Made by a program: the position numbers and the translations under genes. 64,000 bases of DNA from an uncultured bacterium. GTDB lineage: Bacteria > GCA-001730085. Location of the stretch: positions 44,300 to 108,299 of the forward strand of contig CAZMGY010000021.1 of NCBI GenBank assembly GCA_964565945.1, in the 5' to 3' direction. The notes beneath the pieces were generated by a model. That model ran no database searches and had not been told where the DNA came from. It worked only from the letters and a program-made list of their open reading frames with translations. Below are positions 3,287 to 30,071 of the stretch, one piece after another. Within the stretch, counting starts at the first letter, position 1. Each line of letters starts with the position of its first letter.

Positions 3287-3363
3287 CGCGGGGTGGAGCA
3301 GACTGGAAGCTCGTTGGGCTCATAACCCAAAGGTCGAGGGTTCGAATCCCTCCCCCGCTACCA
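3287..3363 (+). tRNA. tRNA-Met (CAT), initiator type
   Basis: 77-nt cloverleaf read by hand: acceptor CGCGGGG/CCCCGCU with a 1-72 mismatch, D-stem GAGC/GCTC, anticodon stem with three G-C pairs next to loop CTCATAA (anticodon CAT), T-arm GAGGG-TTCGAAT-CCCTC, encoded CCA. Near-identical in layout to E. coli tRNA-fMet. Confidence 0.85.
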
Positions 3364-9696: not shown

Positions 9697-10644
9697 ATGG
9701 CTAATTTAAGGAAGAACTCAGCAAAATCTGAATTTTGGAAAAAGCATGTGCAGGAGTGGAAGAAGGGGAGGCTAATTCAATCTGAATATTGTATAAAAAA
9801 TAAAATATCAGAATCTGCATTTTCCAAATGGAAAACTAAATTATTCCCAAAACAAATTGGAACGCGGCGCTTAAAACAGCTTAAAAATAAATATTATAAA
9901 AACTCGAAATTGTCTAACCAGCAAATCGAAAATTTATTTGTAGGTTTTTTATGTGATGTGCCAGCGAAAGTTGCTGCTAAAGGGAGTGATATAAGTGAGG
10001 CTACTGCTTATAAATACTATAACAAAATACGATATGATTTAGTTAATGGAGCGCTAAATTATCCGCTTTTATTTTTTGGTTCAGGGATGCTTTTGATTTT
10101 AGGGGCACCACCAGATGTACATGAGTTAGCACGCAAATTTAAACCCATAAGCCCAAGTATAAAAGGCAGAGAAAAACATATATATTACGCGCTTTGTAAT
10201 GTTTTGATTTGTCATTCTTTTCGCAAATGGACAGTTTCCGAGATATATTATTTTTGGTTTCAGGGGTTACGGGCATATTTTTTAAAGCACTATGCTAAAA
10301 GTCATGGTCTAAATGAAAGTGATTGGAATATGGCTATGGCAGTTCAGATGCAAAATAAAATTTCAATTGCAAAAATGACAGTAACAATATGGCTGGATTG
10401 GATAAAAGAGGGAGGAAATACTACCCCTTTTTCTGAGGATGTATGGGAAGCTATTCGATATCAACATGACTATCATGCTGATGCTAAATCCTGGATAAAA
10501 CCTATGCTCCATGATTTAAAATGGGTCGTAGAGAGAAATAATAATTTAAAAAGAAGTACATACTGGGATTTCTTTAAACCTAGCAAGTCAGGTATTCTTG
10601 AAGTAAATAGAAGGATTCATGAATACCTAGAAAGAACAAACTAG
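9697..10644 (+). CDS. hypothetical protein with N-terminal transposase-OrfA-like HTH
   Basis: 315 aa, very AT-rich; N-terminus 'EFWKKHVQEWKKGRLIQSEYCIKNKISESAFSKWKTKL' resembles IS3/IS66 OrfA-type HTH; remainder unrecognised. Confidence 0.4.
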   Translation: MANLRKNSAKSEFWKKHVQEWKKGRLIQSEYCIKNKISESAFSKWKTKLFPKQIGTRRLKQLKNKYYKNSKLSNQQIENLFVGFLCDVPAKVAAKGSDISEATAYKYYNKIRYDLVNGALNYPLLFFGSGMLLILGAPPDVHELARKFKPISPSIKGREKHIYYALCNVLICHSFRKWTVSEIYYFWFQGLRAYFLKHYAKSHGLNESDWNMAMAVQMQNKISIAKMTVTIWLDWIKEGGNTTPFSEDVWEAIRYQHDYHADAKSWIKPMLHDLKWVVERNNNLKRSTYWDFFKPSKSGILEVNRRIHEYLERTN

Positions 10645-11933
10645 ATTCTGAGCGCTATCTTTTGCAGCCATTTATACTTCTGTTCAAGGCTAGGACCATC
10701 CCCATATCGGGGACGGTCATATCTATGTCCCATGAGTGCAGCCTGTACTTTGTCGGGCGGCTCTACTGCCGTCAGCCGATCCTCAAAACTGTGACGCAGA
10801 CTGTATAGGCTATGATCTTCACTTGGAAGTAAATTGTTATTACGCAGAAACTTATTCAGATTTCCTGATAGCTGATCAGGTTTGCGGTAATATCGCTCAA
10901 ATCCTTTTGGTAGATTTTGAAACGCATAGAGTGATGATCCCACCAATGGCATGTAGCGTTCACTGTAGGGTGTTTTAATTTCCTTGTCTTTTTCTGCATG
11001 AATATATATGTAGGGGATATCTGTATCCAGCCTAATATCTCCTGCCTTAAAATTCAGGCCAACTAGCTCAGAGGGGCGAGCACCTAAATCGGCCATAGCG
11101 AATAGAAATAACTGACACTCTCGTTCCAACCCTTTCAGGTTGTCCATGTTTAATAATACATCTCGAATATGGTTCACCTTAAAAGGTTGTCTTTTGCTCT
11201 TTATTTCTTTGAACCTTATACGGCTGAATAATTCATCGACGCTGATGTCTGCGCCGTGATTATCTTTTGCAAAGAACAGGAGTGTTCGTAGATGCGTAAA
11301 ATCCTTGTTTGGTGAATTGGGAGATAGGCTTTCTGATTCGACGCGTTCTTGCCACCATGACCGAAATGCTAATATATCGTTTCTGGTGATTTGCTCTACT
11401 GATAGGTCGCCACATATTTTAATAAAATTACTGACAGCTTTTACTTTAGGGTTTTTCCATTTTCTTAGTTGGGATTCATTTTTTCTTGTATGATTTGGTT
11501 TTTCAAACTCGATATATGAATCTAATGCTTCGCTTATAGGAAATTTAGGTTTTTCTTTTCCTCCTAGTAAGGCAGTAACGTTTTCATCGGTCTCGGGTAT
11601 ATCCGATTGTAGCGCATCTAAACGATCAATAATCTTGCTGACATCAGAACCTGCAAGCTCTGAAATAGATTTGTACGAGAAATTGAATGTTTGGGCTGTA
11701 TGAACGGCTTTGCTATATTCATAGTCCTTATCCATCGGTATATTTTTTACGATGTTATTCCAGTAATTATCTAATTCCTCTTTTAATACTGATGCACGCT
11801 GAATGGCAACAGATTCTGATGTCGTCTTCAAGCTTACCTGTATGATCTCCTGGCCATCATAATATTTCAGATACCGTTTTGGTATTCTGTGTTTAAAGTG
11901 GAACCAGCCTTTTATTTTTATAATATGGCGCAT
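10641..11933 (-). CDS. tyrosine-type site-specific integrase/recombinase
   Basis: 430 aa; C-terminal catalytic region with 'GARPSEL' (Arg), 'LYSLRHSFEDRL' (His-x-x-Arg) and 'MGHRYDRPRYG' (His/Tyr), typical of the phage integrase family. Confidence 0.8.
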   Translation of the reverse strand: MRHIIKIKGWFHFKHRIPKRYLKYYDGQEIIQVSLKTTSESVAIQRASVLKEELDNYWNNIVKNIPMDKDYEYSKAVHTAQTFNFSYKSISELAGSDVSKIIDRLDALQSDIPETDENVTALLGGKEKPKFPISEALDSYIEFEKPNHTRKNESQLRKWKNPKVKAVSNFIKICGDLSVEQITRNDILAFRSWWQERVESESLSPNSPNKDFTHLRTLLFFAKDNHGADISVDELFSRIRFKEIKSKRQPFKVNHIRDVLLNMDNLKGLERECQLFLFAMADLGARPSELVGLNFKAGDIRLDTDIPYIYIHAEKDKEIKTPYSERYMPLVGSSLYAFQNLPKGFERYYRKPDQLSGNLNKFLRNNNLLPSEDHSLYSLRHSFEDRLTAVEPPDKVQAALMGHRYDRPRYGDGPSLEQKYKWLQKIALRI

Positions 11934-13563: not shown

Positions 13564-13800
13564 TTAGGGATCGCCATTTAATTGGGCAATATCGCCCTTG
13601 AATAATTGCCATATTTGAAGCCCGAGGGCTTTGGCAATCTTTTCAACGGTGCCAATCTCAGGGCTGACTTCTCCGTGTTCAATCGCCCCGATATGGGTGC
13701 GGTGAAGGCCAGCACTCAAAGCCAGAGCTTCCTGCAACCATCTGCGCATCGCCCGAGCCAGCCGGATTTGATCTCCAAGGGTCTGCCGATATGTTTGCAC
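13564..13800 (-). CDS. XRE-family HTH transcriptional regulator
   Basis: 78 aa; 'LSAGLHRTHIGAIEHGEVSPEIGTVEKIAKALG' is a Cro/cI-type HTH. Confidence 0.55.
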   Translation of the reverse strand: MQTYRQTLGDQIRLARAMRRWLQEALALSAGLHRTHIGAIEHGEVSPEIGTVEKIAKALGLQIWQLFKGDIAQLNGDP

Positions 13801-13885: not shown

Positions 13886-14086
13886 ATGAGCGTTATTATT
13901 CAGCGTTTAGCCATGAATATTCGGCGAAGGAGGGGTGATATATCGCAGCGTGCCTTTGCCAGCAAGCTAGGTATATCTCAATCCACTTTGGCGCGCATAG
14001 AAAACGCTGGCCAGAACACAACGCTCTCGACATTAGAGCAGCTCATGAAATCACTGAAATGCGATATAGGCGGGTTGTTCAAATGA
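13886..14086 (+). CDS. XRE-family HTH transcriptional regulator
   Basis: 66 aa; 'ISQRAFASKLGISQSTLARIENAGQNTTLSTLEQLMKSL' is a canonical XRE HTH. Confidence 0.55.
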   Translation: MSVIIQRLAMNIRRRRGDISQRAFASKLGISQSTLARIENAGQNTTLSTLEQLMKSLKCDIGGLFK

Positions 14087-14733: not shown

Positions 14734-15330
14734 TTGAAGCTCACTGATCTTGCAATTATATCCGCTGGACACCCATTCAGAGGGAAAATACTGGAAAAAT
14801 CCGGTAGCGGTATCCGTGCCGTGCAGATGAAAGACATCTCTATTGATCAGGGTGTTTGTTGGGAGAGCGTTATCGAAACGGAGCTTTCTGGCAAAAAAAA
14901 ACCTGCTTGGCTGATGAATGGGGATATCCTTTTCGCAGCCAGAGGCGCACGTAATTATGCCGTACTGGTAGATCATATTGTAGGGAAAGTCGTTAGTGCT
15001 CCTCATTTCTATATTCTCCGTGTGAACGAGCAATCGCTTTTGCCGGAATTTCTGGTCTGGCAGCTCAATCAAAAACCCCTGCAAAACTATTTCGACAGGG
15101 CAGCGCAAGGGTCGTTTACCAAGAGCATTAAACGCTCAATTTTAGAATGTGCTGAAATCACAGTACCGCCACTAGATAACCAAAAGCAAATCGTAGGCTT
15201 GCACATGACATTGATGCAAGAAAGAAAGCTCTATTCTGAATTGACCAGAAATGCGGATAAGTTAATGAATTCTATTGCCAGCAAACTTGCGGCAGGTAAA
15301 ACTCTACAGTTAAAAGGAATAAAAATATGA
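14734..15330 (+). CDS. hsdS: type I restriction-modification specificity subunit, single-TRD (half-size HsdS)
   Basis: 198 aa; one target-recognition-like region followed by an S-subunit-type conserved helix ('QKQIVGLHMTLMQERKLYSELTRNADKLMNSIA'); stop overlaps the hsdM start (ATGA). Confidence 0.55.
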   Translation: MKLTDLAIISAGHPFRGKILEKSGSGIRAVQMKDISIDQGVCWESVIETELSGKKKPAWLMNGDILFAARGARNYAVLVDHIVGKVVSAPHFYILRVNEQSLLPEFLVWQLNQKPLQNYFDRAAQGSFTKSIKRSILECAEITVPPLDNQKQIVGLHMTLMQERKLYSELTRNADKLMNSIASKLAAGKTLQLKGIKI

Positions 15331-16850
15331 ACACACCAATAAGCCAAGATGCTATCAACAAAGCCTTATGGGGGGCATGCGATACATTCCGTGGCACGGT
15401 CAGCGCTGACACATACAAAGACTTTATCCTAACCATGTTGTTCCTGAAATACATCTCTGATGTTTGGCAGGATCACTATGACAAATACAAAGAAGAGCAT
15501 GGTGACGAGCCAGAGCTTATTCATGAAATGATGAAGAATGAGCGCTTTGTTCTTCCCGATGGATCAAGCTTTTATACCCTTTATGAAAAACGCCATGAAC
15601 CCGGCAATGGTGAGCGTATCGACCAAGCTCTTCACGCATTGGAAGAGGCTAACGGCACTAAGCTTCGTGATGCATCAAAATCCGTGTTTCAGGATATCAG
15701 TTTTAACACTGATAAGCTCGGTGAAGAAAAACAAAAAAACACCATTCTTCGCCACTTGCTGGAAGATTTTGCCAAAGATGAATTAAACCTTCGCCCCAGT
15801 CGTGTTGGATCACTCGATGTGATCGGTAACGCCTACGAATATCTGATTAAGCACTTTGCCGCAGGTGGTGGGCAAAAAGCAGGAGAATTCTATACCCCGC
15901 CCGAAGTATCTGACCTGATTGCAGAATTGCTAGACCCACAAGAAGACGACACAATTTCTGATCCGGCTTGTGGTTCTGGTTCCTTGCTCATGAAATGTGG
16001 TCGTAAAATTAAAAAGCGTTTTAACAGCAAAAAATACGCACTCTACGGGCAAGAAGCTATTGGCTCTACTTGGTCTCTGGCGAAAATGAATATGTTCCTG
16101 CATGGCGAAGACAATCACAAAATAGAGTGGGGAGATACAATCAGAAACCCTAAGCTACTGAATAAGCATGGCGGCTTGATGCATTTTGATATTGTGACGG
16201 CTAATCCTCCATTCAGTCTCGATAAATGGGGGCATGATGAAGCTGATCATGATCCGTTTGGACGTTTTCGTCGTGGTATTCCTCCAAAGACCAAAGGTGA
16301 TTATGCCTTTATTTCGCATATGATCGAAACTATGGAGCCGACTACAGGGCGTATGGGCGTTGTTGTTCCGCATGGTGTTTTGTTTCGTGGTAGCTCAGAA
16401 GGAAAAATCCGCAAACAATTGATAGAAGAAAATTTGCTTGATACGGTGATAGGACTTCCTGAAAAGCTCTTTTACGGTACAGGGATACCGGCGGCGATTC
16501 TGATCTTTAAGAAAAATAAGGCGGATAGCAATGTCCTGTTCATTGATGCCAGCCGTGAATGTAAGACGGGTAAAAACCAAAACCTACTCACGCTTGATAA
16601 TATTAAAAAAATAGTCAAGACATATAAGGTGCGTAAAAGCTTTGATAAATATTCGTATTTGGCCAATTTTGAGGAGATTGAGGAAAACGACTTTAACCTT
16701 AATATCCCGCGTTATGTCGATACTTTTGAAGAGGAAGAAGAAATTGACCTATTGGCAGTGCGTAAAGAGCGTGAAGAACTAAAAACTCAACTCGTCGAAC
16801 TGGAAACGGAAATGGATGGTTATCTCAAGGAGCTGGGTTATGGTTCCTGA
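15327..16850 (+). CDS. hsdM: type I restriction-modification DNA methyltransferase subunit M
   Basis: 507 aa; 'YTPPEVSDLIAELL', 'DPACGSGSLL' (AdoMet motif I) and 'IVTANPPFS' (NPPF motif IV) of N6-adenine MTases. Confidence 0.92.
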   Translation: MNTPISQDAINKALWGACDTFRGTVSADTYKDFILTMLFLKYISDVWQDHYDKYKEEHGDEPELIHEMMKNERFVLPDGSSFYTLYEKRHEPGNGERIDQALHALEEANGTKLRDASKSVFQDISFNTDKLGEEKQKNTILRHLLEDFAKDELNLRPSRVGSLDVIGNAYEYLIKHFAAGGGQKAGEFYTPPEVSDLIAELLDPQEDDTISDPACGSGSLLMKCGRKIKKRFNSKKYALYGQEAIGSTWSLAKMNMFLHGEDNHKIEWGDTIRNPKLLNKHGGLMHFDIVTANPPFSLDKWGHDEADHDPFGRFRRGIPPKTKGDYAFISHMIETMEPTTGRMGVVVPHGVLFRGSSEGKIRKQLIEENLLDTVIGLPEKLFYGTGIPAAILIFKKNKADSNVLFIDASRECKTGKNQNLLTLDNIKKIVKTYKVRKSFDKYSYLANFEEIEENDFNLNIPRYVDTFEEEEEIDLLAVRKEREELKTQLVELETEMDGYLKELGYGS

Positions 16851-18075
16851 TGGGTGGAAAGAAGAAAATCTTGGAACTCTTTTTGAGTTTAAAAATGGCG
16901 CTAATACTGAGGCAGCCAATTACGGTTCTGGAATTAAGTTTGTTAATGTGATGGACGTGTTTGGTAATCACTTTATTACTAGCGAGAAAATTCGTGAAAG
17001 AGTTAATCTGCCTGAAAAAAAGATTAATTTATATTTGTTAAAAATGGGCGACGTATTATTTAATAGAACGTCAGAGGTTTTCGACGAAATTGCTCTAACT
17101 GCTGTTTATATGGATACTTCACCAGCAATATTTGGTGGCTTCGTTATTAGGGGGCGACCTAAGGCTAACGAACTTGACTTTAAATTTTGTATTTATTGTT
17201 TTTCATCTTATAGAGTCCGTAAGGAATCTATAAGAAGAGGGCAAGGGGTAATACGATCGAACATTGGTCAAAAAGACCTACAGTATGTTCCGTTGTTAGT
17301 TCCTCCTATTATAGAACAAAAGAAAATAGCCAAAATATTATTGACTTGGGATCGAGCGATTGAGGTAACAGAAAAACTAATCAGCAATAGTCAGCAACAA
17401 AAAAAGTCCCTCATGCAACAACTCATCACTGGCAAAAAACGCCTTCTGGGATTTAGTGATGAATGGGAAAAGATTCGATTAAAGCCTCTTTTAGAGGAGG
17501 GAAAGGCTAGAAATAAAGATAGTTCAATACAACGAGTATTAAGTGTTACTAATCATAGCGGTTTTGTATTACCAGAAGATCAATTTTCAAAACGTGTGGC
17601 GAGCAGTAATGTCAGTAACTATAAAATAGTTAAACGTGGAGAATTTGCATATAACCCATCTCGTATAAACGTTGGTTCATTTGCGCGTCTTGATGATTAT
17701 GATGAGGGTATTCTTAGCCCAATGTATGTTGTTTTCAGTGTTAAGAAAGATTCGCTATTTAGTGACTTTTTCTTTCAGTGGATGTCATCACATCACGCAA
17801 AACAACGTATTCTTTCAAGTACGCAGGGATCGGTAAGAGATTCAGTCAGTTTTCAAGCACTTTGTGCGTTCCCGTTTTTGCTTCCATCACTAAAAGAACA
17901 ACGAAAAATTGCGTCAGTTCTTTTATCTGCGGATAAAGAAATTGAAACTCTTCAACAAAAACTCGAATACCTCAGCCAAGAAAAAAAGGCGCTGATGCAA
18001 CAACTCCTCACTGGCAAACGCCGTGTGAAAATTGATGAAGATGGTATTTCTCAGAAGGAGGTTGTGCGTGCCTGA
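16840..18075 (+). CDS. hsdS: type I restriction-modification specificity subunit S (two TRDs)
   Basis: Two variable regions, each followed by a conserved repeat ('QKKSLMQQLITGKKRLLGF' and 'EKKALMQQLLTGKRRV'); start overlaps the hsdM 3' end. Confidence 0.85.
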   Translation: MVPDGWKEENLGTLFEFKNGANTEAANYGSGIKFVNVMDVFGNHFITSEKIRERVNLPEKKINLYLLKMGDVLFNRTSEVFDEIALTAVYMDTSPAIFGGFVIRGRPKANELDFKFCIYCFSSYRVRKESIRRGQGVIRSNIGQKDLQYVPLLVPPIIEQKKIAKILLTWDRAIEVTEKLISNSQQQKKSLMQQLITGKKRLLGFSDEWEKIRLKPLLEEGKARNKDSSIQRVLSVTNHSGFVLPEDQFSKRVASSNVSNYKIVKRGEFAYNPSRINVGSFARLDDYDEGILSPMYVVFSVKKDSLFSDFFFQWMSSHHAKQRILSSTQGSVRDSVSFQALCAFPFLLPSLKEQRKIASVLLSADKEIETLQQKLEYLSQEKKALMQQLLTGKRRVKIDEDGISQKEVVRA

Positions 18076-19144
18076 TATTATTTCATTTGAAGCCGCTATT
18101 GCGGAGTCAGAACAATATAAAAAACGTCATTTATTGCTAGGCAATGGTTTTAGTATTGGCTGTCGAGCTGACATATTTCATTATGAGTCTCTTTTTGGGG
18201 AAGCTGATTTTTCGGCAATTCCTGAGGCTAAACAGGTTTTTGAATCTTTACAGACACAGGATTTTGAAGTTGCAATTCGCGCACTTGAGAATGGTTCAAA
18301 AATTCTACCTATCTATGTGCCCAATGATGACGCAAGCGTTCAGGCAATGAGTAATCATGCTATTGCGCTTAAAGATTTGTTAGTTGCCACAATTGCTGGC
18401 AACCATCCTCCTAATCCTAATGCAATAGATGATCCAGAGTTTTGGGCTTGCCGACAGTTTTTAAGTTATTTCCTCGCTTCGGATAAGGGAGGACATGTCT
18501 TCACTCTAAACTATGACTTATTACTGTATTGGGCATTGATGCATGATGACAATCCATTTGATGAGGAAGTGGTGGAGCTGAACAAGAATGATGGGTTCGG
18601 AAATGATGAAGATGATCCAGAAGCGGATTATGTTCTCTGGCAAGGTGAGACCTCCGCGCATAGTGCAAATATACTTTTTCTGCACGGTGCACTTCATCTA
18701 TTTGACTCGGGTGCAGAGCTACAGAAATATACTTGGGTTCGTAAGGGTGAACCATTGGTGGATCAAGCGCGCACTGCAATAGCTGCGAATAAATTCCCTC
18801 TTTTTGTCGCGGAAGGAACAAGTACACAAAAGAAAAACAAAATTCGCCATAACGCATATCTTTACCAGTGTTTTAAGGTTCTGACAGCCAACGCACAGAC
18901 TGGCACGCACTGTTTTTTCATATTTGGACATTCGTTAGCTGATAGTGATGACCACATCCTAAAACGTCTTGGTAAAGGCCGTTTTAAGAAATTATATGTA
19001 GGTATTTTTGGTGATGCGGATACGCCAGAAAATAGGAATGTGATTGCACGCGCAAATGCTATCGCAGCACTTAGACATGATAGGTATCCTCTTGAGGTGG
19101 TGTTTTTCGATTCCTCATCCGCTAATGTTTGGGGGAATGATTAA
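18068..19144 (+). CDS. DUF4917 / SIR2-like domain protein embedded in the type I R-M operon
   Basis: Gly-rich 'LLLGNGFSIG', 'LFLHGALHLFD' and 'IFGHSLADSDDHIL' resemble the SIR2-like/DUF4917 arrangement (from memory, not searched). AGGAGG RBS and GTG at 18068; the track ORF starts at 18032. Overlaps hsdS and hsdR stops/starts. Confidence 0.6.
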   Translation: MPDIISFEAAIAESEQYKKRHLLLGNGFSIGCRADIFHYESLFGEADFSAIPEAKQVFESLQTQDFEVAIRALENGSKILPIYVPNDDASVQAMSNHAIALKDLLVATIAGNHPPNPNAIDDPEFWACRQFLSYFLASDKGGHVFTLNYDLLLYWALMHDDNPFDEEVVELNKNDGFGNDEDDPEADYVLWQGETSAHSANILFLHGALHLFDSGAELQKYTWVRKGEPLVDQARTAIAANKFPLFVAEGTSTQKKNKIRHNAYLYQCFKVLTANAQTGTHCFFIFGHSLADSDDHILKRLGKGRFKKLYVGIFGDADTPENRNVIARANAIAALRHDRYPLEVVFFDSSSANVWGND

Positions 19145-22100
19145 TGGCTTTGATTCCCAAATTCCAAGAAGAATACAGCGCGAAAATTCCAGCATTAACG
19201 CTGCTTCATAATCTTGGTTGGACGTTCTTATCACCCGAGCAAGCTTTATCCGCTCGCAATGGCAAAACCAGTGAGGTGGTTTTACGTGAAGTGTTGAGAG
19301 AAGAACTTCGAAAACGCCGTTTTACTTTTGCAGGGAAAGAACGCGTTTTTTCTGAAAATGCTATTGATAATGTTATTGCGGAACTATGCGCGCCAGCTTT
19401 GAACGAAGGCTTAGGTGTTGCTAATGAAAGAATATATAACCATTTGCTTTATGGTATATCGGTAAAAGAGTTTATTGACGGTAAGAAAGTAAATCCAACA
19501 ATCCAAATTATTGACTGGGACAATGTTGATAATAATAGTTTTCTTTTTACCGAAGAATTTAGTGTTTTAAGAACGGGTGAAGTTGAATCCCGTAGACCAG
19601 ATATTGTTTGTTTTGTGAATGGATTGCCATTTGCAGTGATCGAAGCAAAACGTCCTGATGGTCATACCAATAAGGGATTGACCATTGATGAAGGTATTTC
19701 CCAGAATATCCGCAATCAACGCAATGATGAAATCCCTCATTTATTTGCATACTCCCAACTTCTTTTTTCAATCAATGGGGCTGATGGTCGTTATGGCACG
19801 CAAGGTACATCAAAACCGTTTTGGGCACCTTGGCGCGAAGAAGATATTTCTGAAGGAGAATTTTATATCCTGAAAAATAAAGCATTGAGTTCTGATGCAA
19901 AAGATACACTGTTTTCGCATAGACCAAAGCAGGATCGTAAGTGGTATGAAGAGCTTATAGTTGGTGGCGAACTTGCCGTTACTGAACAAGACAAAATGCT
20001 CATAAGTCTTCTTTCTCCATCACGGTTGATTGAAATGACAAGATATTTTGTATTGTTCGATAAAAAAATAGGGAAAGTGGCAGCACGATATCAGCAAGTA
20101 TTTGGTATTAAGCGTCTGATCGAGAGAATTAATACAAAAGATAATAAGGGCGTGCGTCAGGGTGGTGTTATATGGCACACCACTGGCTCTGGTAAATCTT
20201 TTACCATGGTCTTCTTGTCGAAAGCTCTTATCTTGCATGGCTCATTGAAGCAGTGCCGTATCGTGGTCGTAACTGATCGTGTTGATTTGGAAAGCCAGTT
20301 AAGTACGACCTTTAGTACAGGCGGAGAACTTGCCAGCAAGAAGGATAAAGCAGCCGCTATTGCAACATCTGGAAGAATGTTAGCAGAACAGATTTCTAAA
20401 GGTAATGAGCGAATAATGTTTTCTATTATTAACAAATTTGCTGTCGCCGCCAAAATGCAAGAGTGTCATAACCTAAGCTCTGACATTATCGTTCTTATTG
20501 ATGAAGGACATCGTTCGCAAGGCGGTGAAAACTTTATCCGTATGCGCAATGCTCTGCCTAATGCAGCTTTTATTGCATTTACAGGAACGCCGTTGTTAAA
20601 AGATGATAAAACGGAAAATAAATTCGGCTCGATTGTTCATGCCTATACGATGCAAAGAGCAGTTGAAGACAAAGCTGTTACACCTCTGCTATATGAAGAA
20701 CGTATCCCTGATCTTGATGTAAATGAACGAGCGATTGATAGTTGGTTTGATCGGATTACAGAGGGTCTCACAGATGAGCAGAAGACGGATTTAAAAAAGA
20801 AATTTGCCAAGAAAGGACACCTTTATCAATCCGAAGATCGTATTCGTTTGATTGCTTATGATATAGCTAATCATTTTGTGAAGAATATTGATGATGGACT
20901 TAAGGGGCAGATTGCTTGTGATAGTAAATTATCAGCCATTAAATATAAGCAATTCATGGATGAGCTTGGTCTGTTTAAATCTGCGGTTGTAATGTCTGCG
21001 CCAGATACCAGAGAGGGCAACACAGATGTTGATGAAGCTACTATCCATGAGGTGGCTAAGTGGTGGAAGGAAAATGTAGGATCACAGGATGAGAAAAGTT
21101 ACACAAAAAATATTGTTAAGCGATTTGAGGAAGATAATGACCTTAAAATTATAATCGTAGTTGATAAGTTACTTACTGGATTTGATGAACCGAGAAATAC
21201 AGTTCTTTACATTGATAAGCCCCTCAAAGAGCACAGCCTGATTCAAGCTATAGCGCGAGTTAATCGTTTGCATGAGAAAAAGAAATTCGGTTTGCTTATT
21301 GATTATCGCGGTATTCTGGCAGAGCTTGATACCACAATAGCTAAATATCAGGATTTGGCTAGCCGTACTCAAGGTAGATTTGATATTGAAGACCTTGAAG
21401 GTCTCTATCAACAAATGAGCACCGAATATAAAAAACTACCGCGTTTGTATAAAGATTTATTAGCAATATTCAAGAATGTTAAAAATAAAGGCGATATTGA
21501 ACAGCTTCGTCAGGTTATAGTTCCAAAAGTACAAGAACAACATGGTGAAATGGTAGATATTAATTTAAAAGCACGTGAAGACTTCTATGATCGATTAAGT
21601 GAGTTTGCTAATTGTTTGAAAGTTGCTTTGCAATCAGCTAGTTTTTATGAAGATAAAAGCTTCACAGAACAGGACAGAAAGCACTACAAAGAAACTGTTA
21701 AACAATATTCATCATTGCGTCAACTTGCCAAGGCTGATGCGGGTGAGACAGTCGATTACGACGAATATGCCGAGCAAGTAAAGAAGCTGATGGATAAGCA
21801 TGTTGTCGGTGTGGAGGTTAAAGAACCTGATGGTGTTTATGAAGTAGGTAAGATGGGTAAATCTGATCCAAAAGACTGGTCAGAAGATAAAACTCGAAAC
21901 GAAACCGATATTATAAAAACTCGTATTACTCGCATGATAGAGCAAAGCTTGCGTGATGATCCTTATGCGCAAGAAGTTTTTTCTAAGCTACTTAAGCAGG
22001 TAATAGAGGAAGCAGAAACCTTGTTTGACCATCCGTTGAAGCAATACATGCTGTTTAAAGAATTTGAAGAAAAAGTCGAAAAACGTGAAGTCGATAGTTT

Positions 22101-22419
22101 GCCTGATAAGTTTGCAGATAATAAGCACGCACAAGCCTACTATGGTGTTTTGAAAATGTATGTTGGCGAAAACCTTTCTACCATAGATGAAGAACTATCT
22201 GACCGATGGGTGGGGCTTTCTTTCAATGTAGATGAGATTATTACGAATGCTATAGCCGAGCACTCAATAAATCCCCAAAACATTGAATCCGAAATTCGAA
22301 ACAAGCTACTTCCTATGATCTTTAGTGAGTGTAAGAAAGTAGGTTCAGGAATAGATCAGACTAAGGCAATAACTGAAAGAATTGTTCAGATTGTACGCGT
22401 AGGACTAAATCACTCATGA
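19144..22419 (+). CDS. hsdR: type I restriction enzyme R subunit (endonuclease/helicase)
   Basis: 1091 aa; helicase Walker A 'TTGSGKSFTM' and DEAD-box-like 'VLIDEGHRSQ'; start overlaps the upstream stop (TAATG). Confidence 0.92.
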   Translation: MALIPKFQEEYSAKIPALTLLHNLGWTFLSPEQALSARNGKTSEVVLREVLREELRKRRFTFAGKERVFSENAIDNVIAELCAPALNEGLGVANERIYNHLLYGISVKEFIDGKKVNPTIQIIDWDNVDNNSFLFTEEFSVLRTGEVESRRPDIVCFVNGLPFAVIEAKRPDGHTNKGLTIDEGISQNIRNQRNDEIPHLFAYSQLLFSINGADGRYGTQGTSKPFWAPWREEDISEGEFYILKNKALSSDAKDTLFSHRPKQDRKWYEELIVGGELAVTEQDKMLISLLSPSRLIEMTRYFVLFDKKIGKVAARYQQVFGIKRLIERINTKDNKGVRQGGVIWHTTGSGKSFTMVFLSKALILHGSLKQCRIVVVTDRVDLESQLSTTFSTGGELASKKDKAAAIATSGRMLAEQISKGNERIMFSIINKFAVAAKMQECHNLSSDIIVLIDEGHRSQGGENFIRMRNALPNAAFIAFTGTPLLKDDKTENKFGSIVHAYTMQRAVEDKAVTPLLYEERIPDLDVNERAIDSWFDRITEGLTDEQKTDLKKKFAKKGHLYQSEDRIRLIAYDIANHFVKNIDDGLKGQIACDSKLSAIKYKQFMDELGLFKSAVVMSAPDTREGNTDVDEATIHEVAKWWKENVGSQDEKSYTKNIVKRFEEDNDLKIIIVVDKLLTGFDEPRNTVLYIDKPLKEHSLIQAIARVNRLHEKKKFGLLIDYRGILAELDTTIAKYQDLASRTQGRFDIEDLEGLYQQMSTEYKKLPRLYKDLLAIFKNVKNKGDIEQLRQVIVPKVQEQHGEMVDINLKAREDFYDRLSEFANCLKVALQSASFYEDKSFTEQDRKHYKETVKQYSSLRQLAKADAGETVDYDEYAEQVKKLMDKHVVGVEVKEPDGVYEVGKMGKSDPKDWSEDKTRNETDIIKTRITRMIEQSLRDDPYAQEVFSKLLKQVIEEAETLFDHPLKQYMLFKEFEEKVEKREVDSLPDKFADNKHAQAYYGVLKMYVGENLSTIDEELSDRWVGLSFNVDEIITNAIAEHSINPQNIESEIRNKLLPMIFSECKKVGSGIDQTKAITERIVQIVRVGLNHS

Positions 22420-23165
22420 GGAATTTAGCTACACACAGGAATGGTTCAATTCAATATGGAGATACAGCCATTAATTTTTCTATTGAACCCAGAGCAACAG
22501 ATGCACCAAAAGTTTTAATAAAAGTACATCCAGATTGCCGCGTTGTAGCACTTGCACCACCGATGGCATCTCATGATGAAATTATGCAGGCGGTAAAGAA
22601 ACGAGCACGATGGGTTTGTAAACAAATGCGGTACTTTGATAAACAACGCGAAAATATTCTCCCGCGTCACTATGTTAGTGGCGAAAGTCATTTCTATCTT
22701 GGGCGTAGGCATCTATTAAAGGTTCAAGAAAATGCTCAAGATACTCCCAAGGTGAAGTTGCTACGGGGTGTTTTGGAAGTTCAAGTACGCAAAGTAAGCC
22801 CAGAAAAAATAAAAGCAATGCTTTTTGATTGGTATAGAGTTCGTGCTAAAGAAGTATTTGATCGTAGGCTAGAAGAAGTTGTTTCTAAAACATTGTGGGT
22901 AAATGATAAGCCATCTATTCACCTTCTTTCTATGCAGACGCAATGGGGGAGTTGCTCGCCGAAAGGTCAGTTGACAATTAATCCTCATTTGGTGAAAGCA
23001 CCAAGAGATTGTATTGATTATGTGCTACTTCATGAGCTTTGCCATATTGCAGAACATAATCATAGTGAACGGTTCTATCGGCTAATGAAGCAAGTTATGC
23101 CTCATTGGGAAAAAGTAAAAGAAAGACTCGATGGTATGGCTTACTTTTATTTGAACGATACTTAA
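22416..23165 (+). CDS. M48-family zinc metallopeptidase (DUF45/YgjP-like), R-M associated
   Basis: 249 aa; HExxH zinc motif in 'YVLLHELCHIAEHNHSERF'; ATGA overlap with the hsdR stop. Confidence 0.8.
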   Translation: MRNLATHRNGSIQYGDTAINFSIEPRATDAPKVLIKVHPDCRVVALAPPMASHDEIMQAVKKRARWVCKQMRYFDKQRENILPRHYVSGESHFYLGRRHLLKVQENAQDTPKVKLLRGVLEVQVRKVSPEKIKAMLFDWYRVRAKEVFDRRLEEVVSKTLWVNDKPSIHLLSMQTQWGSCSPKGQLTINPHLVKAPRDCIDYVLLHELCHIAEHNHSERFYRLMKQVMPHWEKVKERLDGMAYFYLNDT

Positions 23166-23283: not shown

Positions 23284-26200
23284 TTGGGGAAAAAAGAAGC
23301 AAGGCGCACTAAGTCAAAGTCAACACCGCGTCAAACAGGTGGGGCAGGATACGACTTCGAAGATTTGATTGCAGCCTGGATGATGGTGAAGATGCTGCGT
23401 GAGATTAGGTTGCCAGGTGTTGAGGAGTTTGGTACAGCGATTCAATGGCAAGCGGAAGTGTTAGGTTGGGAACAGATCGATGACCTTCTGGTTACATGTG
23501 TGGTTGAAGAAGAAAAGAAAAAGCAGCTAGCCATCTCTTGTAAAAGCAACATGCAAGTTAGTGGGTCTGGGCTTCCATTTGATTTTCTCAAAAATGCTTG
23601 GTCACTATGGATAAAAGGCGAGCCTTTTAATAAGGAAAATGATTGCATGATGTTGGTTCAGAAAGGCAGCAATCAAAATTTTTTTACTGCTTGGGCAGAC
23701 CTAAAATATTGGTGTTCTGAGGGCGATGTAGAAACGGCTCTAGCACGAATTACAGCTTCTCAGAAACATAGTAAAATATACAATGGCGTTAAGGCTCCTG
23801 ATAAAAGCAGTAATTATACAAACGAAGATACTATTGCGCTTATACGCAGTTTAGAAGTTATTCCTGCAGATTTTCATTTAGCTAGTTCGGAATACGAAGA
23901 CACTTCATTATCCCATTGTCGTGATCTTTTGCAGGATGGCTCTGAAGAGACTGCAAAAAAGCTATGGGACTGGCTTCTCAAGAAAGCTAAAGTCAAACGT
24001 ATCTCAGGTGGAACATTACAGCTATCAGAGTTGTGGCAAGAATTGGTTCCAGCATTTGATTTAAAAGACCATCCAAACTTTCTTTCATCATGGAAGTCTC
24101 TTAAAGCTATATCCGAAGAATATAAGAGATCAATCGAAATTGAATTGCCTAATGGTCATAGTGTCATAAGGCCTGCCGAAGAAGACCTGATAGAGCATCT
24201 TAGAGATGGTCCAATATGTATTGTATATGGTAGCTCTGGAAGGGGTAAATCGGCGGTTGTTAAATCTACTTTAGATAAGAAGCTATCTGATTGGAATCAG
24301 GTTTGGTTTTCTCCGGAAAACCTAGACTTAGCTTCAAGTGAAAGGACTCGCTCAGAAGTGGGATTGCTTAGACCTTTGCAGGATGTACTTGCTCACTCAT
24401 CGGAAGAAAAAAATGTCCTAATTATAGATTCTGCTGAGAGGATTAACCCCGATAGCAGAAAAATTGTAAAGTCGCTTATTTCCAACCTATTGATACACAA
24501 TGGCGAACAGAAGAGTCGTTTGAACTGGCGAGTTATCATTGTTGGGCAAACCGAGGCTTGGGCATCTGGCAATTTTCATGAAATTTCAGGACTCTCTTCT
24601 ATTCAGCCTATAGAAATTTCTTCCCTTGACCCTTCGGATGTCAGAGCAGCTTTGCATTCAAGCAATCACTTATCTTGGCTTGCTTCGGATAACGAAGCGC
24701 TTATAGCCTTAGGTAACTTGAAAACTTTGGCTTGGGTAATGCGAGCTGGAACCATTTTTCCAAAAGGGGGAATGAATAGCATATCGTTGCCTGCAATCGC
24801 TGATCGTTTATGGTCGTATTGGACAAAAGATAAAATAAAACTTCAGAATCTTCTGATGCAACTTGCTGAACGTGAAGCTCAATTTGAACGTAGCTTTCCT
24901 ATCAGTGGGTTTGGTATTGATGTAAGCCAAGCTCTTGATGAAGGTTTGGAATGCTTGCCACTACGAAAAAGAAAAGAGACTAATTCAATCGAGTTTGAGC
25001 ATGACCTGGGTGCTGATTGGGCAAGGTTTCAGCGTTTAAAAGAAATAAAAAATGACATAAGCTCTTGGGCACCATTTGCTAGCAACCCTCTCTGGCATAA
25101 TGCTTTGCGCATGATGGGGCAACTCCTATTACGAGAAAAAACTGAACAAGGAACACTATGGGATGTTGTTTATGATGAAGCAGAAAAAACAAAAGTTGAA
25201 AATCCTTTAGCAGCAGATATTCTCTTAGATTCTTTGTGCCTTGATCCATTTGCTGCGCATTATCTTAATGAGCGGTCGGATATACTTTTTGCAGATAACG
25301 GGGCTCGTTTAAACCGCTTATTAAAACGTTTTCATCATATAGCGACCGTTTCAAATGTCTCTAGCGAGTCCTTGGACATTGATCCCTCGCTAAAATTGTA
25401 TTTAGAAGACATGCAAAGGTTGCCAATCTATGGTCGTTGGCCACAAATTGCACAATTTCTTTCAGATCACAAAGAACAAGTTTCCAGCCTAATCTCACCA
25501 ACTATTTCAAAACTATGTGAGACTTGGCTTACAACAACACCTCTCTATCTTGATCCTGAGGCAAATACGCCGATGCCCTATAGAAAGGTATTTGCAGAGC
25601 TTGCTTTAAGCACGGTAAGGACTTTACAACTTGAGCAAAAGAAAGGGCACTTGTGGCTCACAGATGACAGCGAAAAGCCTCTTTATGGGGCAGCATTTGC
25701 GGCTGTAAACGATCTTCCTGACGAAGTCTGCGAATGGGCTTTAGAAATGGCCTGTAGAAGACCTTGCAAAAAAGAAATACCTGAAGCGCTTGCAGCCTAT
25801 CGAGAAGAAAGAAGAAAAGAACATAGAGAAAAATTGCGCACTGATAAGGCTTATCCTGAAAGGCACGAGCGTTTACGTTCAATGCCTTCCGGTATTTCAA
25901 GCCATAGAGATTTACCTCCATGGCCATTAGGGCCACAAGGTAGTGTAGATAATACTTTTCGAGATTATTGCTTGAACTCAAACTCCATGGCTAGGCTGAT
26001 GTATCTAAGGCCAGAAGTTGCAAGCGAGTGCCTTCTTGCAATGCTAATAGATTATTCGCGTAGCCCTCTCCGAGATGATTTAGGTCTAGTGTATAGTCAC
26101 ACAGGATACCCTACGGCATATTGGAAAAGTCCATTTTTCCAGTTTTTACAGTTGAATAGCACTATAGCCATGGATTCCCTTATTTCGCTCGTTAATTTTT

Positions 26201-28536
26201 GTACAGATCGATGGGCAGATGATTTTGAGAGCGATTATAGTCTAGAGGTAAGTCTACGAGATGGTCAAAAACAAAGTTTGAAAGGAAACGGACATGTTTT
26301 CTCCTGGTCTCAAGAAAGCTCCACATCTAACGGACAGCTCTACTGTGCGTTAGCAGCACTAGAAAAATGGATTTATATTGAAATTGATAAGGACGCAGAT
26401 GTAGAGCCTGCGCTCAAGAGACTTATCGAAAACTCAAATTCTGTTGCAATAATAGGCGTGCTCCTAAATGTCGGTAAATACAAACCAAGCTTATTTACAA
26501 GCGCATTACAACCTTTTTTAGGGGTATATGAATTCTATCAAGCCGATGACAACCGCCTTCTAGATGCCGGGCATTGGTATGATGCTGGGGCATGGCCGTG
26601 TGAGGGTGAAAAAATATTTGAAATGGCCAAAGAGTGGCACTTTGCTCCGCACCGGAAAATTCCGTTGCGGCAATTAGCTGTTCAACTTGCTCTCAGTGAT
26701 AAAGAGACAGCCTCTTTTATTAAGGAAGCTTCTGAAAGTTGGGAAACACATTCAGTCGAGGAAAAATATGATTTAGAGGTAAGGATATTAAAAGCTGAAC
26801 TTGATCCTGAAAATTATAAGCCAGAAAAAGACCAACAATCTGGGCAGACATTATTGAGGTGTTATTACCCAGACAAGCTACAGAAGGACATAGAAGATTT
26901 TCAGAAAAGAAAAAGTCCGAGATGGCATGCTGTTACTATACCTATTCAATGTGAAGAATTATTGGCTTCGTCTCATAACATTACTGATGAAGAGGCTGAG
27001 AGATTAGCTTCTGCACTCAATGTTGTTCCTATAGAAGAAGATGAAGAGAGCATCCTCGCGACAGAAGCGGCGATCGCAGCTACGTTGTTAATAAAGGCAC
27101 CTAGCTGGCTAGACAAAAACCCTGATCTTAAAAAGAAAACAAATGAAATTATTCAAAATATAATTTCTAGTATTGGAGACACCTTAGAATCTTTGAGAGC
27201 TACCGGACATCTTATGAGTGATAGGTCGCTTGCCTTTGCCACTCATGTTGTTGTTGAAGAATTTATAAACAACCCGTCCCATGATAGGGACGTAGATGCT
27301 TCTGTATTAAGAATTTTAACCAGTGGTGACAACCAGGCTGTCTTCATTTTGATGAATGCGGCTTATCAAAATAGAGATAAGCTAGGTGATCGCTGGTGGC
27401 GTCTCATACAAATATCAATCTTTTGTGCTGGACTTAATAGCCTTAGTCCGGGCTTTAGAGAAGATGAAGATAAATCGATTGAATTACGTTGGGCGCGTTG
27501 GTTGATATGGTTGCGCACCCGTGATTTAAACGTTTCAGTAAATGCAGAAGCTATTGACCCAATCGGATTAGCGGTTCGTGTGGATCGTTTAAAAATGGCT
27601 CGTATTAAACGGCTATTTGGAAAAGATACAGACGGACGTTTGCGTTACTATCATCGAGGGTTTTTTGGCCTTGAGACCTACACGTTGGATAAAATGTTTT
27701 CATGGATGCTGAGTGATCATGGGCAAGGGGCTGACAATAGTTCGGATGTGCGTCTCTTAACTCAAAAACTTTGGGTGTTCGAAGCTTGGAGAAAGCAAAA
27801 AAGCGAAGAAGCCAACGATGAAGATAATGACCGTGATAGCCTTCCAAGCGATTTAGGTTACTCGCTTCTTCAAAAGCTATCAAAGCTTATGCTGACTGCA
27901 CAAAAAGATGAAGCGTCTAAGATTTGGAAGCCGATACTTTCTATGGGCGTAGATGGTCATCATTCTATTGAGCATTTCATTGATGGGTGGCTGCTAGGAG
28001 TGGTTCAAACCAAAAATACAAACTCCCTTTCTCAGTTTTGGAGAGAATTAATTGAGTTTGCGCTCTTATCTCCCAACTGGTCTCCCAATAAATATTGGTA
28101 TAAAGGAGAAGAGTTATTTCGACATCTTTTAGGATTTGGCTTGATTAATCTTGCGGAGTTTGAAGGTGCTCAAAACATTATTTTCGAAATAAAGGATCTG
28201 TATAAACGTTGGGCTGATACACACCTTTCTCAGGAAGAGGAAAATATAGCAGGCTTTGCATATTTTCTTTCCTCTAAAGTGGGGGCACCTATTCGGTATG
28301 ATGGTCTGCTGTGGATCAGAGACTCCTTGCGACCTCCCAATCCTGCATATTGGCGTCGAATGGAAACCGGACGCTCTCTTGTTGATCTTTTGGATGTTAT
28401 CATTACCGAAGAAACTAAACAAATATCTTCAGATTCTGAGTTTCGCGATGCGTTATTGAGGGTTGCAGCACATTTGGCTGATAGGCAAGTTCCTATTGCA
28501 TTATTGTTGCAAGAGAAGATTCGCCAGGTGCATTAG
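23284..28536 (+). CDS. very large (1750 aa) P-loop NTPase of unknown function; candidate defense protein
   Basis: Single uninterrupted ORF, AAGGAG RBS and apparent TTG start; Walker A 'YGSSGRGKSAVVKS' near residue ~320 and Walker B-like 'VLIIDSAERI' ~60 aa later; long helical C-terminus; no family recognised by eye. Confidence 0.8.
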   Translation: MGKKEARRTKSKSTPRQTGGAGYDFEDLIAAWMMVKMLREIRLPGVEEFGTAIQWQAEVLGWEQIDDLLVTCVVEEEKKKQLAISCKSNMQVSGSGLPFDFLKNAWSLWIKGEPFNKENDCMMLVQKGSNQNFFTAWADLKYWCSEGDVETALARITASQKHSKIYNGVKAPDKSSNYTNEDTIALIRSLEVIPADFHLASSEYEDTSLSHCRDLLQDGSEETAKKLWDWLLKKAKVKRISGGTLQLSELWQELVPAFDLKDHPNFLSSWKSLKAISEEYKRSIEIELPNGHSVIRPAEEDLIEHLRDGPICIVYGSSGRGKSAVVKSTLDKKLSDWNQVWFSPENLDLASSERTRSEVGLLRPLQDVLAHSSEEKNVLIIDSAERINPDSRKIVKSLISNLLIHNGEQKSRLNWRVIIVGQTEAWASGNFHEISGLSSIQPIEISSLDPSDVRAALHSSNHLSWLASDNEALIALGNLKTLAWVMRAGTIFPKGGMNSISLPAIADRLWSYWTKDKIKLQNLLMQLAEREAQFERSFPISGFGIDVSQALDEGLECLPLRKRKETNSIEFEHDLGADWARFQRLKEIKNDISSWAPFASNPLWHNALRMMGQLLLREKTEQGTLWDVVYDEAEKTKVENPLAADILLDSLCLDPFAAHYLNERSDILFADNGARLNRLLKRFHHIATVSNVSSESLDIDPSLKLYLEDMQRLPIYGRWPQIAQFLSDHKEQVSSLISPTISKLCETWLTTTPLYLDPEANTPMPYRKVFAELALSTVRTLQLEQKKGHLWLTDDSEKPLYGAAFAAVNDLPDEVCEWALEMACRRPCKKEIPEALAAYREERRKEHREKLRTDKAYPERHERLRSMPSGISSHRDLPPWPLGPQGSVDNTFRDYCLNSNSMARLMYLRPEVASECLLAMLIDYSRSPLRDDLGLVYSHTGYPTAYWKSPFFQFLQLNSTIAMDSLISLVNFCTDRWADDFESDYSLEVSLRDGQKQSLKGNGHVFSWSQESSTSNGQLYCALAALEKWIYIEIDKDADVEPALKRLIENSNSVAIIGVLLNVGKYKPSLFTSALQPFLGVYEFYQADDNRLLDAGHWYDAGAWPCEGEKIFEMAKEWHFAPHRKIPLRQLAVQLALSDKETASFIKEASESWETHSVEEKYDLEVRILKAELDPENYKPEKDQQSGQTLLRCYYPDKLQKDIEDFQKRKSPRWHAVTIPIQCEELLASSHNITDEEAERLASALNVVPIEEDEESILATEAAIAATLLIKAPSWLDKNPDLKKKTNEIIQNIISSIGDTLESLRATGHLMSDRSLAFATHVVVEEFINNPSHDRDVDASVLRILTSGDNQAVFILMNAAYQNRDKLGDRWWRLIQISIFCAGLNSLSPGFREDEDKSIELRWARWLIWLRTRDLNVSVNAEAIDPIGLAVRVDRLKMARIKRLFGKDTDGRLRYYHRGFFGLETYTLDKMFSWMLSDHGQGADNSSDVRLLTQKLWVFEAWRKQKSEEANDEDNDRDSLPSDLGYSLLQKLSKLMLTAQKDEASKIWKPILSMGVDGHHSIEHFIDGWLLGVVQTKNTNSLSQFWRELIEFALLSPNWSPNKYWYKGEELFRHLLGFGLINLAEFEGAQNIIFEIKDLYKRWADTHLSQEEENIAGFAYFLSSKVGAPIRYDGLLWIRDSLRPPNPAYWRRMETGRSLVDLLDVIITEETKQISSDSEFRDALLRVAAHLADRQVPIALLLQEKIRQVH

Positions 28537-29558: not shown

Positions 29559-30071
29559 ATGAGTGCAGAAATTAGAATTTATGTGGCATGTTTGGCAGCG
29601 TATAACGGCGGTAGATTGCATGGCGTTTGGATTGACGCAACCGATGAGCTGGACGATATTCAAGAGCAAGTAAATATGATGCTAAAAGAAAGCCCAGAGC
29701 CAGACGCAGAAGAATGGGCGATACATGATTACGAGGGTTTTGGTGGTTATAGCGTTAGCGAATATTCAGGGTTTGAAGAGCTTCACGATGTTGCGTCTTT
29801 TATTGAAGAATATCCAGAAATTGGTGGGGAGCTTTTAGATCATTGCTCAGACCTTGAAGAAGCCAGGAAAGCCATAGAAGAAAGCTATGCAGGATGCCAT
29901 AAATCACTTGCAGATTTTGCCGAGGAAACAACCGAGGAAACAACCGAAATTCCTGAGCATTTACGGTATTACATTGATTATGAAAAAATGGGGCGTGATA
30001 TGGAAATGAGCGGAGACGTTTACACAATTGAAACAGGTTATGAGGAAGTGCATATATTTTGGAATCATTAA
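29559..30071 (+). CDS. ardA: antirestriction protein ArdA
   Basis: 170 aa, acidic; 'IYVACLAAYNGGRLHGVWIDATD', 'EEWAIHDYEGFGG' and 'LRYYIDYEKMGRDMEMSGDVYTIE' parallel the conserved ArdA blocks (e.g. Tn916 ArdA). Confidence 0.85.
   Translation: MSAEIRIYVACLAAYNGGRLHGVWIDATDELDDIQEQVNMMLKESPEPDAEEWAIHDYEGFGGYSVSEYSGFEELHDVASFIEEYPEIGGELLDHCSDLEEARKAIEESYAGCHKSLADFAEETTEETTEIPEHLRYYIDYEKMGRDMEMSGDVYTIETGYEEVHIFWNH

Follow-up and report, generated by a model that had tools for sequence, protein, structure and literature searches.

The closest described relatives of the locus reported here are effector and defence genes embedded in type I restriction-modification (R-M) operons, together with single-gene abortive-infection proteins. 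Payne et al. 2024 (bioRxiv) introduced the 'guilt by embedding' approach, by which the PADLOC PDC models were derived from families that occur inside BREX, DISARM and type I R-M systems, and described PrrC as almost exclusively embedded in type I R-M; PDC-S21, DUF4917 and SIR2 are not named in the available portions of its text and supplements (Table S8 in part). In the RRDM island of enteropathogenic Escherichia coli (EPEC), DarTG2 occupies the slot between hsdS and hsdR, an M48 peptidase gene follows hsdR, and the hsdS-hsdR site was regarded by the authors as a likely recombination hotspot for defence systems (PMC12255303). Further genes inserted within type I R-M operons include TgvAB of Vibrio cholerae (PMC11411939) and RloF of Campylobacter jejuni; in PrrC, Ronin and EcoR22I an anti-restriction protein sets off a cell-death effector linked to an R-M system, and AbiH of Lactococcus is a single-gene abortive-infection protein, now seen as SIR2-like and often carried on integrative and conjugative elements. 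The DUF4917 protein SliP of C. jejuni (Cjj81176_0779) shares its operon with Cjj81176_0780, which encodes the type I restriction subunit; in vitro SliP consumed nicotinamide adenine dinucleotide (NAD+) about 2-fold with modest deacetylation, both GNG glycines (G24/G26) being required, and it was read as a secreted virulence sirtuin, exported by the flagellar apparatus and deacetylating host histones (PMC10421069). Here another DUF4917 gene is described, which lies at 18068..19144 on the forward strand, flanked by hsdS and hsdR in a type I R-M operon, in a window (the whole stretch of DNA analysed) of 64,000 nucleotides (nt) from an uncultured bacterium (assembly GCA_964565945.1, contig CAZMGY010000021.1). 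The reading favoured for this gene, held with somewhat better than even confidence, is that it encodes an autonomous immune-type SIR2 enzyme, which would be carried as exchangeable cargo of the hsdS-hsdR junction, co-transcribed and co-transferred with the R-M system.

The encoded protein of 358 amino acids (aa) matched the Pfam family DUF4917 (PF16263) as a full domain, with residues 22-355 covering profile positions 1-311 of 311 (E=1.4e-66; 225.5 bits against a cut-off of 28), confirming the family identity given in an earlier note on this DNA. The PADLOC model PDC-S21 (PDLC04960) matched over profile positions 1-335 of 336 (E=5.6e-120; 398.8 bits), and no NCBIfam model matched the protein. 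The DUF4917 family comprises 2383 representatives of 50%-identity clusters at E<=1e-3, nearly always single-domain proteins of about 350 aa; such a score and so many matching representatives show that the open reading frame (ORF) did not arise by chance. The resemblance to SIR2-like proteins seen in the earlier note held for the fold and for the NAD-binding and catalytic motifs, but not at the level of the SIR2 profiles, as Pfam SIR2_2 (PF13289) stayed below its gathering threshold for the window protein (16.7 versus 24.5 bits; E=0.008). Individual scans of 78 relatives gave SIR2_2 matches in 21 at E<=0.01 (best 3.5e-6), and the tie of DUF4917 to SIR2_2 thus lies at superfamily level, outside that Pfam family. 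AbiH (PF14253) matched 11 of the 78 relatives (best E=7.1e-7) and gave no match to the window protein at E<=0.01, and the SIR2 deacetylase family (PF02146) gave zero matches in the window protein and the 78 relatives. Neither the sequence by itself nor a profile gave a significant match in the PDB, the top SIR2 match standing at E=0.58. An AlphaFold model built from 78 diverse sequences reached a predicted local distance difference test score (pLDDT) of 95.1 and a predicted template modelling score (pTM) of 0.92, and an earlier AlphaFold2 model on a shallow alignment (19 sequences, >=68% identical; pLDDT 51) was discarded. In a Foldseek search the better model retrieved the SIR2 subunit of E. 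coli SIR2-HerA as the top match (E=7.6e-10; TM-score about 0.6), followed by DSR2, SPARSA and sirtuins, and a SIR2 Rossmann fold is predicted for the DUF4917 protein on this basis.

The three motifs quoted in the earlier note are all present in the translation, namely LLLGNGFSIG at residues 22-31, LHGALH at residues 205-210 and GHSLADSD at residues 287-294, and a fourth and most diagnostic motif, which that note had missed, is TLNYDLLLY at residues 146-154. Among 78 diverse DUF4917 members, the most distant of them 32% identical to the window protein, the residues G25-N26-G27-F28-S29, H113, Y149-D150, D175, H206-G207, K220, K255, G287 and D294 are invariant (78/78), and N148 and S289 are kept in >=90%. 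The codons of the GxGxS loop G25-N26-G27-F28-S29, predicted to bind the NAD phosphates and with glycines equivalent to G24/G26 of SliP, lie at 18140..18154, those of N148-Y149-D150, the counterpart of the (T)NYD motif, at 18509..18517, and those of H206-G207, within the LHG motif, at 18683..18688, all on the forward strand. In immune SIR2 NADases the catalytic Asn and His are N112 and H152 in ThsA and N133 and H171 in DSR2; N148 and H206 are taken here to be their putative counterparts. A sub-threshold profile alignment pairs N148-Y-D and L-H206-G with TNYDLL and LHGS of PsSIR2 (8w9l), and both the NAD-binding loop and the putative Asn/Asp/His catalytic set are intact in the DUF4917 protein.

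An enzyme of this kind could also serve as a non-suicidal, NAD-dependent modifier, a deacylase or an ADP-ribosyltransferase resembling SirTM or CobB, by which NAD+ would not be depleted. It might act on a phage protein or nucleic acid, or on HsdR or HsdM themselves, for example in restriction alleviation together with the M48 peptidase of the operon, and such a role would be in line with the reported deacetylation of lysine peptides with NAD+ by SliP (PMC10421069) and with the presence of DarT, an NAD-dependent ADP-ribosyltransferase, in the EPEC slot (PMC12255303). It is nevertheless considered improbable, as the four cysteines of the window protein (32, 128, 268 and 282) include no CxxC pair, so that the zinc module of deacylase sirtuins is absent, as Pfam SIR2 finds no match, and as copies of the gene that stand apart from any R-M operon, described below, show that an R-M substrate is not needed.

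The DUF4917 ORF extends over 18032..19144 on the forward strand in the ORF listing, and the GTG at 18068 was taken as the start because the nearest homologues (L001 and L002; 89-90% identity) start at the equivalent codon, with an identical 8-nt hsdS overlap, and because a Shine-Dalgarno sequence, AAGGAGG, is read upstream of it at 18055..18061 on the forward strand, inside hsdS and with a 6-nt spacer. From this start the gene overlaps the hsdS stop codon TGA (18073-18075) by 8 nt, GTGCCTGA, and it ends in a TAA (19142-19144) whose last base is shared with the hsdR ATG (19144-19146) in a TAATG at 19142-19146, so that both contacts reported in the earlier note are present. All junctions in the cluster of half-size hsdS (half-S), hsdM, hsdS, DUF4917, hsdR and M48 genes overlap, by 1-11 nt or more. 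The stop/start overlaps were considered as a mark of a special tie of the DUF4917 gene to hsdS and hsdR and were rejected as such, because overlap is the rule across the whole operon. A scan of the operon for promoter and terminator consensus sequences found sites not above those in shuffled sequence and gave no hint of an internal promoter ahead of the DUF4917 gene. The sequence places the gene on one polycistronic message with the R-M genes, with overlapping stops and starts and its own Shine-Dalgarno sequence.

One genome per species was scanned for related genes, which gave 261 confirmed relatives, and the counts on relatives given here refer to the best 80 of the 261. In 47 of these 80 the DUF4917 gene lies between hsdS and hsdR of one R-M operon family, the hosts being Alpha-, Beta- and Gammaproteobacteria, one cyanobacterium, one Thermodesulfobacteriota and one Lentimicrobiaceae genome. 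The order in the embedded loci is half-S, hsdM, often a RhuM gene, hsdS, DUF4917, either nothing or 1-6 kb of other genes, hsdR and M48. In 31 loci the end of hsdS and the beginning of DUF4917 overlap (-1, -4, -8 or -11 nt), and a 76-aa DUF2188 gene stands between the two genes in 11 loci of a single clade (L062, L065-L068, L070-L074 and L078); this small gene (e.g. L070:7767-7997) ends just before the DUF4917 ATG and could encode a small regulator or partner. The junction between DUF4917 and hsdR is an overlap or a gap of <=5 nt in 29 loci and contains 1-6 kb of inserted DNA in 17 loci, and the inserts in sampled loci comprise Abi_2, RhuM, HD/HD_assoc phosphohydrolase, McrB/McrC and Schlafen/AlbA_2 genes. 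A RhuM gene of about 344 aa also marks a second cargo position, between hsdM and hsdS (L009, L016 at 5747-6781, L066 and about 25 others), which is occupied in most alphaproteobacterial relatives; the window has no such gene.

Pairwise distances of DUF4917 track the hsdM distances at r=0.84 and the hsdR distances at r=0.83, the comparators being M48 versus hsdM (r=0.84), M48 versus hsdR (r=0.89) and hsdS, which shuffles (about 0.57). Only one gene of the operon is more conserved than DUF4917, whose mean distance is 0.35 (hsdR, 0.46; M48, 0.56), and the invariant catalytic residues and this low mean distance therefore indicate strong and long purifying selection on enzymatic function. Integral membership of the R-M operon, as claimed in the earlier note, is supported by the position between hsdS and hsdR in 47 of the 80 relatives and by this co-inheritance, and the gene is a long-standing, selected resident of the R-M operon family.

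Residence of this kind may be read in terms of a guard of the PrrC or Ronin type, in which the DUF4917 protein would be held inactive on HsdM2S or HsdR2M2S until an anti-restriction protein (Ocr, ArdA or a Stp-like protein) releases it and NAD+ is depleted. The position between hsdS and hsdR is that of prrC; PrrC, Ronin/RonA and EcoR22I offer precedents triggered by anti-restriction proteins, and the gene is both co-inherited with hsdM and hsdR and highly conserved. DUF4917 members also lie beside type I R-M systems of other families, on plasmids after hsdR in Methylobacter and before hsdM in Rhizobium pRL11 and, as a relative next to a type I R-M of another family, in L040. The nearest structural relative, the SIR2 subunit of SIR2-HerA, is an NADase under the control of a DNA-translocating partner ATPase, and HsdR, likewise a translocase, might by analogy play a corresponding part. 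In a docking form of the same idea, for which the chance is put low, the protein would dock on HsdM2S or on the HsdR translocase, as SIR2 does on HerA, and would fire when Ocr, ArdA or stalled complexes disturb the enzyme; if this were true, the operon would be an integrated restriction-plus-suicide machine, and the solo copies would be derived forms guarding type I enzymes encoded elsewhere in the genome.

A guard of this type is considered unlikely, and the suggestion in the earlier note that the gene is a second effector layer wired into the R-M complex was not borne out. In 31 of the 80 closest relatives (39%) the gene is solo, with hsd genes absent within 8 kb, whereas PrrC is near-exclusively embedded, and in a neighbour-joining tree the solo lineages are nested repeatedly inside embedded ones. 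Comparison of alignment columns found no residues conserved solely in the embedded copies and no fixed differences between embedded and solo copies, and the catalytic set is intact in both groups alike. Adjacency to the hsd genes is often interrupted, by the DUF2188 gene in 11 loci or by 1-6 kb of cargo in 17 loci, and the R-M family works with entirely different slot genes elsewhere; the overlaps at the gene's borders are, as noted above, operon-wide. An anti-restriction gene, ardA, on the same island would moreover be risky for a suicide module triggered by ArdA.

The neighbours of the solo copies include AIPR, an OLD-like ATPase-nuclease, DndB, an IrrE-HTH protein, an integrase and a transposase, and no recurrent neighbour was found across the 31 solo loci. 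A tandem pair of DUF4917 genes in solo context was observed in a metagenome-assembled genome (MAG) of Inquilinus (L011:127-1975). Among 36 plasmid records with DUF4917 members, copies stand alone amid toxin-antitoxin and mobilisation genes in Leptospira, E. coli and Leisingera, and a Vibrio plasmid member lies in a defence region. A search of phage genomes found 0 DUF4917 homologues in 50,697 records, and the subfamily of the window gene was absent from E. coli complete genomes in a DNA-level search. DUF4917 thus also persists on its own, its sequence still conserved, in defence islands and on plasmids. The family ranges over free-living Alpha-, Beta- and Gammaproteobacteria, cyanobacteria, Thermodesulfobacteriota and Bacteroidota MAGs, and the contexts examined always contained R-M, defence or mobile-element genes. 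This distribution bears on the idea that the protein is a secreted, host-directed sirtuin, as SliP was reported to be on the basis of flagellar secretion and host-histone deacetylation (PMC10421069). Such a role is regarded as extremely improbable for the window protein, in view of the spread of the family across free-living lineages and its constant contexts, of the SliP gene itself sharing an operon with Cjj81176_0780, and of an N-terminus in which no hydrophobic signal-like stretch was seen by eye.

The hsdS-hsdR slot is, in the loci compared, an interchangeable cargo position of a widespread, M48-ended type I R-M operon family. The R-M family is far commoner than its DUF4917 cargo, as 444 plasmid records and 553 of 5426 complete E. 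coli genomes carry its hsdR, and in hsdR-family loci without DUF4917 the slot holds a YecA-family gene (UPF0149 + SEC-C) or a NucS-like nuclease gene together with an Abi gene. The YecA-family gene fills the slot in a very common enterobacterial version of the R-M system, such as in L092 (Klebsiella plasmid) and in L097 and L098 (E. coli chromosomes), and a SEC-C-motif protein encoded in the window at 30350-31393 is unrelated to this slot gene. The window operon fits the RRDM-like type, with the order hsdM-hsdS-cargo-hsdR-M48 on one strand and cargo varying among relatives. A slot that is a recombination hotspot with many unrelated occupants, and a literature that holds no published defence phenotype for DUF4917/PDC-S21, would both suit a passenger that plays no part in defence, an insert which is selfish or neutral, such as an addiction-type toxin, at a junction that tolerates such inserts. 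This is judged very unlikely, as the gene is the second most conserved of the operon and has invariant catalytic residues, as an adjacent antitoxin-like partner is absent in most loci, and as nearly all other slot occupants are defence genes. The DUF4917 gene is a real passenger, and probably a defensive one.

Under the favoured reading, that of an autonomous SIR2 enzyme carried as exchangeable cargo, the DUF4917 protein would be inactive until infection, as in ThsA, DSR1/2, SIR2-HerA, SPARSA, Avs5 and probably AbiH, would sense infection by itself and not via the R-M complex, and would then consume NAD+, by which phage replication would stop (abortive infection). Embedding would bring co-regulation and co-transfer with the R-M system, and phages that get past restriction by means of modified DNA or anti-restriction proteins would meet a second, mechanistically different barrier. 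The defence-effector role put forward in the earlier note remains plausible through the PDC-S21 match, the AbiH matches in relatives and the defence-gene neighbours. Several observations weigh against the favoured reading, such as the sub-threshold SIR2_2 score of the window protein; the absence of a sensor domain of its own, such as most of the characterised immune SIR2 effectors possess; the co-inheritance with hsdM and hsdR and the siting of members beside other type I families, which also fit a functional tie to R-M; a full-text literature search in which no anti-phage phenotype was found for DUF4917/PDC-S21, no paper named PDC-S21 and the five that name DUF4917 were not defence studies; and the sole biochemistry on a DUF4917 member, SliP, which was read as secreted-effector deacetylation with an approximately 2-fold use of NAD+.

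The R-M operon itself is opened by the half-S gene (14734..15330), a half-size hsdS-like gene with one target-recognition domain (Methylase_S E=7.7e-6; PADLOC Specificity_I E=6.7e-19), whose junction with the hsdM start is ATGA; a half-S is found upstream of hsdM in most related loci, and the one on an Acinetobacter plasmid is annotated as 'restriction endonuclease subunit S'. It is followed by hsdM, encoding the methyltransferase subunit (15327..16850; N6_Mtase E=1.4e-105; HsdM_N E=2.4e-22), by hsdS, encoding two target-recognition domains (16816..18075; two stretches matched by Methylase_S; PADLOC Specificity_I E=5.4e-103), for which the true start is probably the ATG at 16840, and, after the DUF4917 gene, by hsdR, encoding the restriction/translocase subunit (19144..22419; HSDR_N, SWI2_SNF2, ResIII and T1R_D3-like domains; PADLOC REase_I 1407 bits). 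The last gene of the operon encodes a YgjP/M48/SprT-like metallopeptidase (22416..23165; Pfam YgjP-like E=3.4e-55), overlaps the hsdR stop in an ATGA and has a counterpart after hsdR in all complete related loci; restriction alleviation is one possible role of an M48 peptidase in type I R-M. All five genes lie on the forward strand. A divergent pair of Cro/C1-type helix-turn-helix (HTH) genes just upstream (13567-13800 on the reverse strand and 13886-14086 on the forward strand) may regulate the operon, by analogy with RptR in EPEC, and the forward-strand HTH protein does not resemble the one encoded ahead of the Acinetobacter operon.

The operon is set in a defence-rich region with an integrase, conjugation-related genes and a nearby tRNA gene. 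Directly downstream, on the forward strand at 23284-28536, lies a gene for a 1750-aa STAND NTPase with AAA_16/nSTAND1 at about residues 300-400, which is probably a further defence gene; its likeness to Avs4 is weak (PADLOC E=2.9e-16; NCBIfam Avs4 72 bits against a 1500-bit cut-off). The ArdA anti-restriction gene (29559-30071, forward strand) shares the island with a seemingly intact type I R-M system, which bears on models in which the DUF4917 protein senses anti-restriction proteins. Overlapping genes for DUF6088 (AbiEi-like) and an AbiEii nucleotidyltransferase toxin (31626-33151, forward strand) add an AbiE-type toxin-antitoxin/abortive-infection pair to the island. A tRNA-Met gene (3287-3363), a gene for a TraG/VirD4-type coupling protein (5477-7138, reverse strand) and a DUF6538/SAM-like integrase gene (10644-11933, reverse strand) suggest that the defence cluster lies on an integrative element, conjugative or mobilisable.

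If the favoured reading is true, DUF4917/PDC-S21 would represent a very common minimal, single-domain SIR2 immune effector, with at least 2383 clusters at 50% identity, the way it is activated would reveal how infection is sensed by a SIR2 NADase that lacks a sensor domain, and SliP, described as a secreted virulence sirtuin yet encoded in a type I R-M locus, would call for re-examination. The DUF4917 family and the embedding principle are already catalogued, and the locus is accordingly confirmatory rather than surprising, being a further clean example of the M48-associated hsdS-hsdR junction as an exchangeable slot for second-line defence, useful for 'guilt by embedding'. What it chiefly offers is a comparative view of the slot, which is at odds with the published account of SliP as a 'secreted sirtuin'.

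Compared with the known systems, the window protein is a full-length, high-scoring member of PDC-S21/PF16263 with no structural differences from it, embedded in type I R-M like the PDC seed sequences. SliP shares with it the DUF4917 family, the GNG motif and the hsdR neighbour, and consumes NAD+ in vitro, but SliP is published as a secreted histone deacetylase, whereas the comparative genomics presented here points to an intracellular, defence-linked role of the family. SIR2-HerA (Nezha), ThsA, DSR2, SPARSA, Avs5 and KomC share with DUF4917 a SIR2 Rossmann core with a helical insertion, and the immune SIR2 NADases have in common with it the GxGxS, N-x-D and H-G motif set and the absence of the zinc module, at an identity of 13-16%. 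The DUF4917 protein differs from them in standing without a HerA, SLOG, pAgo, STAND or other sensor partner or domain, its neighbours being hsdS and hsdR; no HerA domain was found in the window operon and no recurrent partner in the solo loci. AbiH is likewise a single SIR2-fold protein of about 350 aa and acts alone, but it is not described as R-M-embedded in the AbiH sources consulted. PrrC/EcoprrI and Ronin (RonA-HsdMS) resemble the window locus in having an effector with or inside type I hsd genes, with prrC between hsdS and hsdR, and they supply the concept of a back-up layer behind restriction; PrrC, however, is an ABC-ATPase with an anticodon nuclease and RonA a 61-aa membrane peptide, whereas DUF4917 has the predicted SIR2 fold, and PrrC is rarely met outside R-M operons, whereas solo copies of DUF4917 are frequent, with no sign of masking by the R-M complex. 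TgvAB and the C. jejuni rlo genes resemble the window locus in that accessory defence cargo stands between hsdS and hsdR in the same orientation; TgvAB is a GmrSD-like pair in a type I R-M cluster, and the window cargo is one SIR2-fold gene. In gene order, RRDM (RptR-HsdM-HsdS-DarTG2-HsdR-M48) has, like the window operon, cargo in the same orientation in the hsdS-hsdR slot and M48 after hsdR, but its cargo is DarTG2 in place of a single SIR2-fold gene, and the window operon carries in addition a half-size hsdS before hsdM and a divergent Cro/C1-type HTH pair upstream, where RRDM has RptR.

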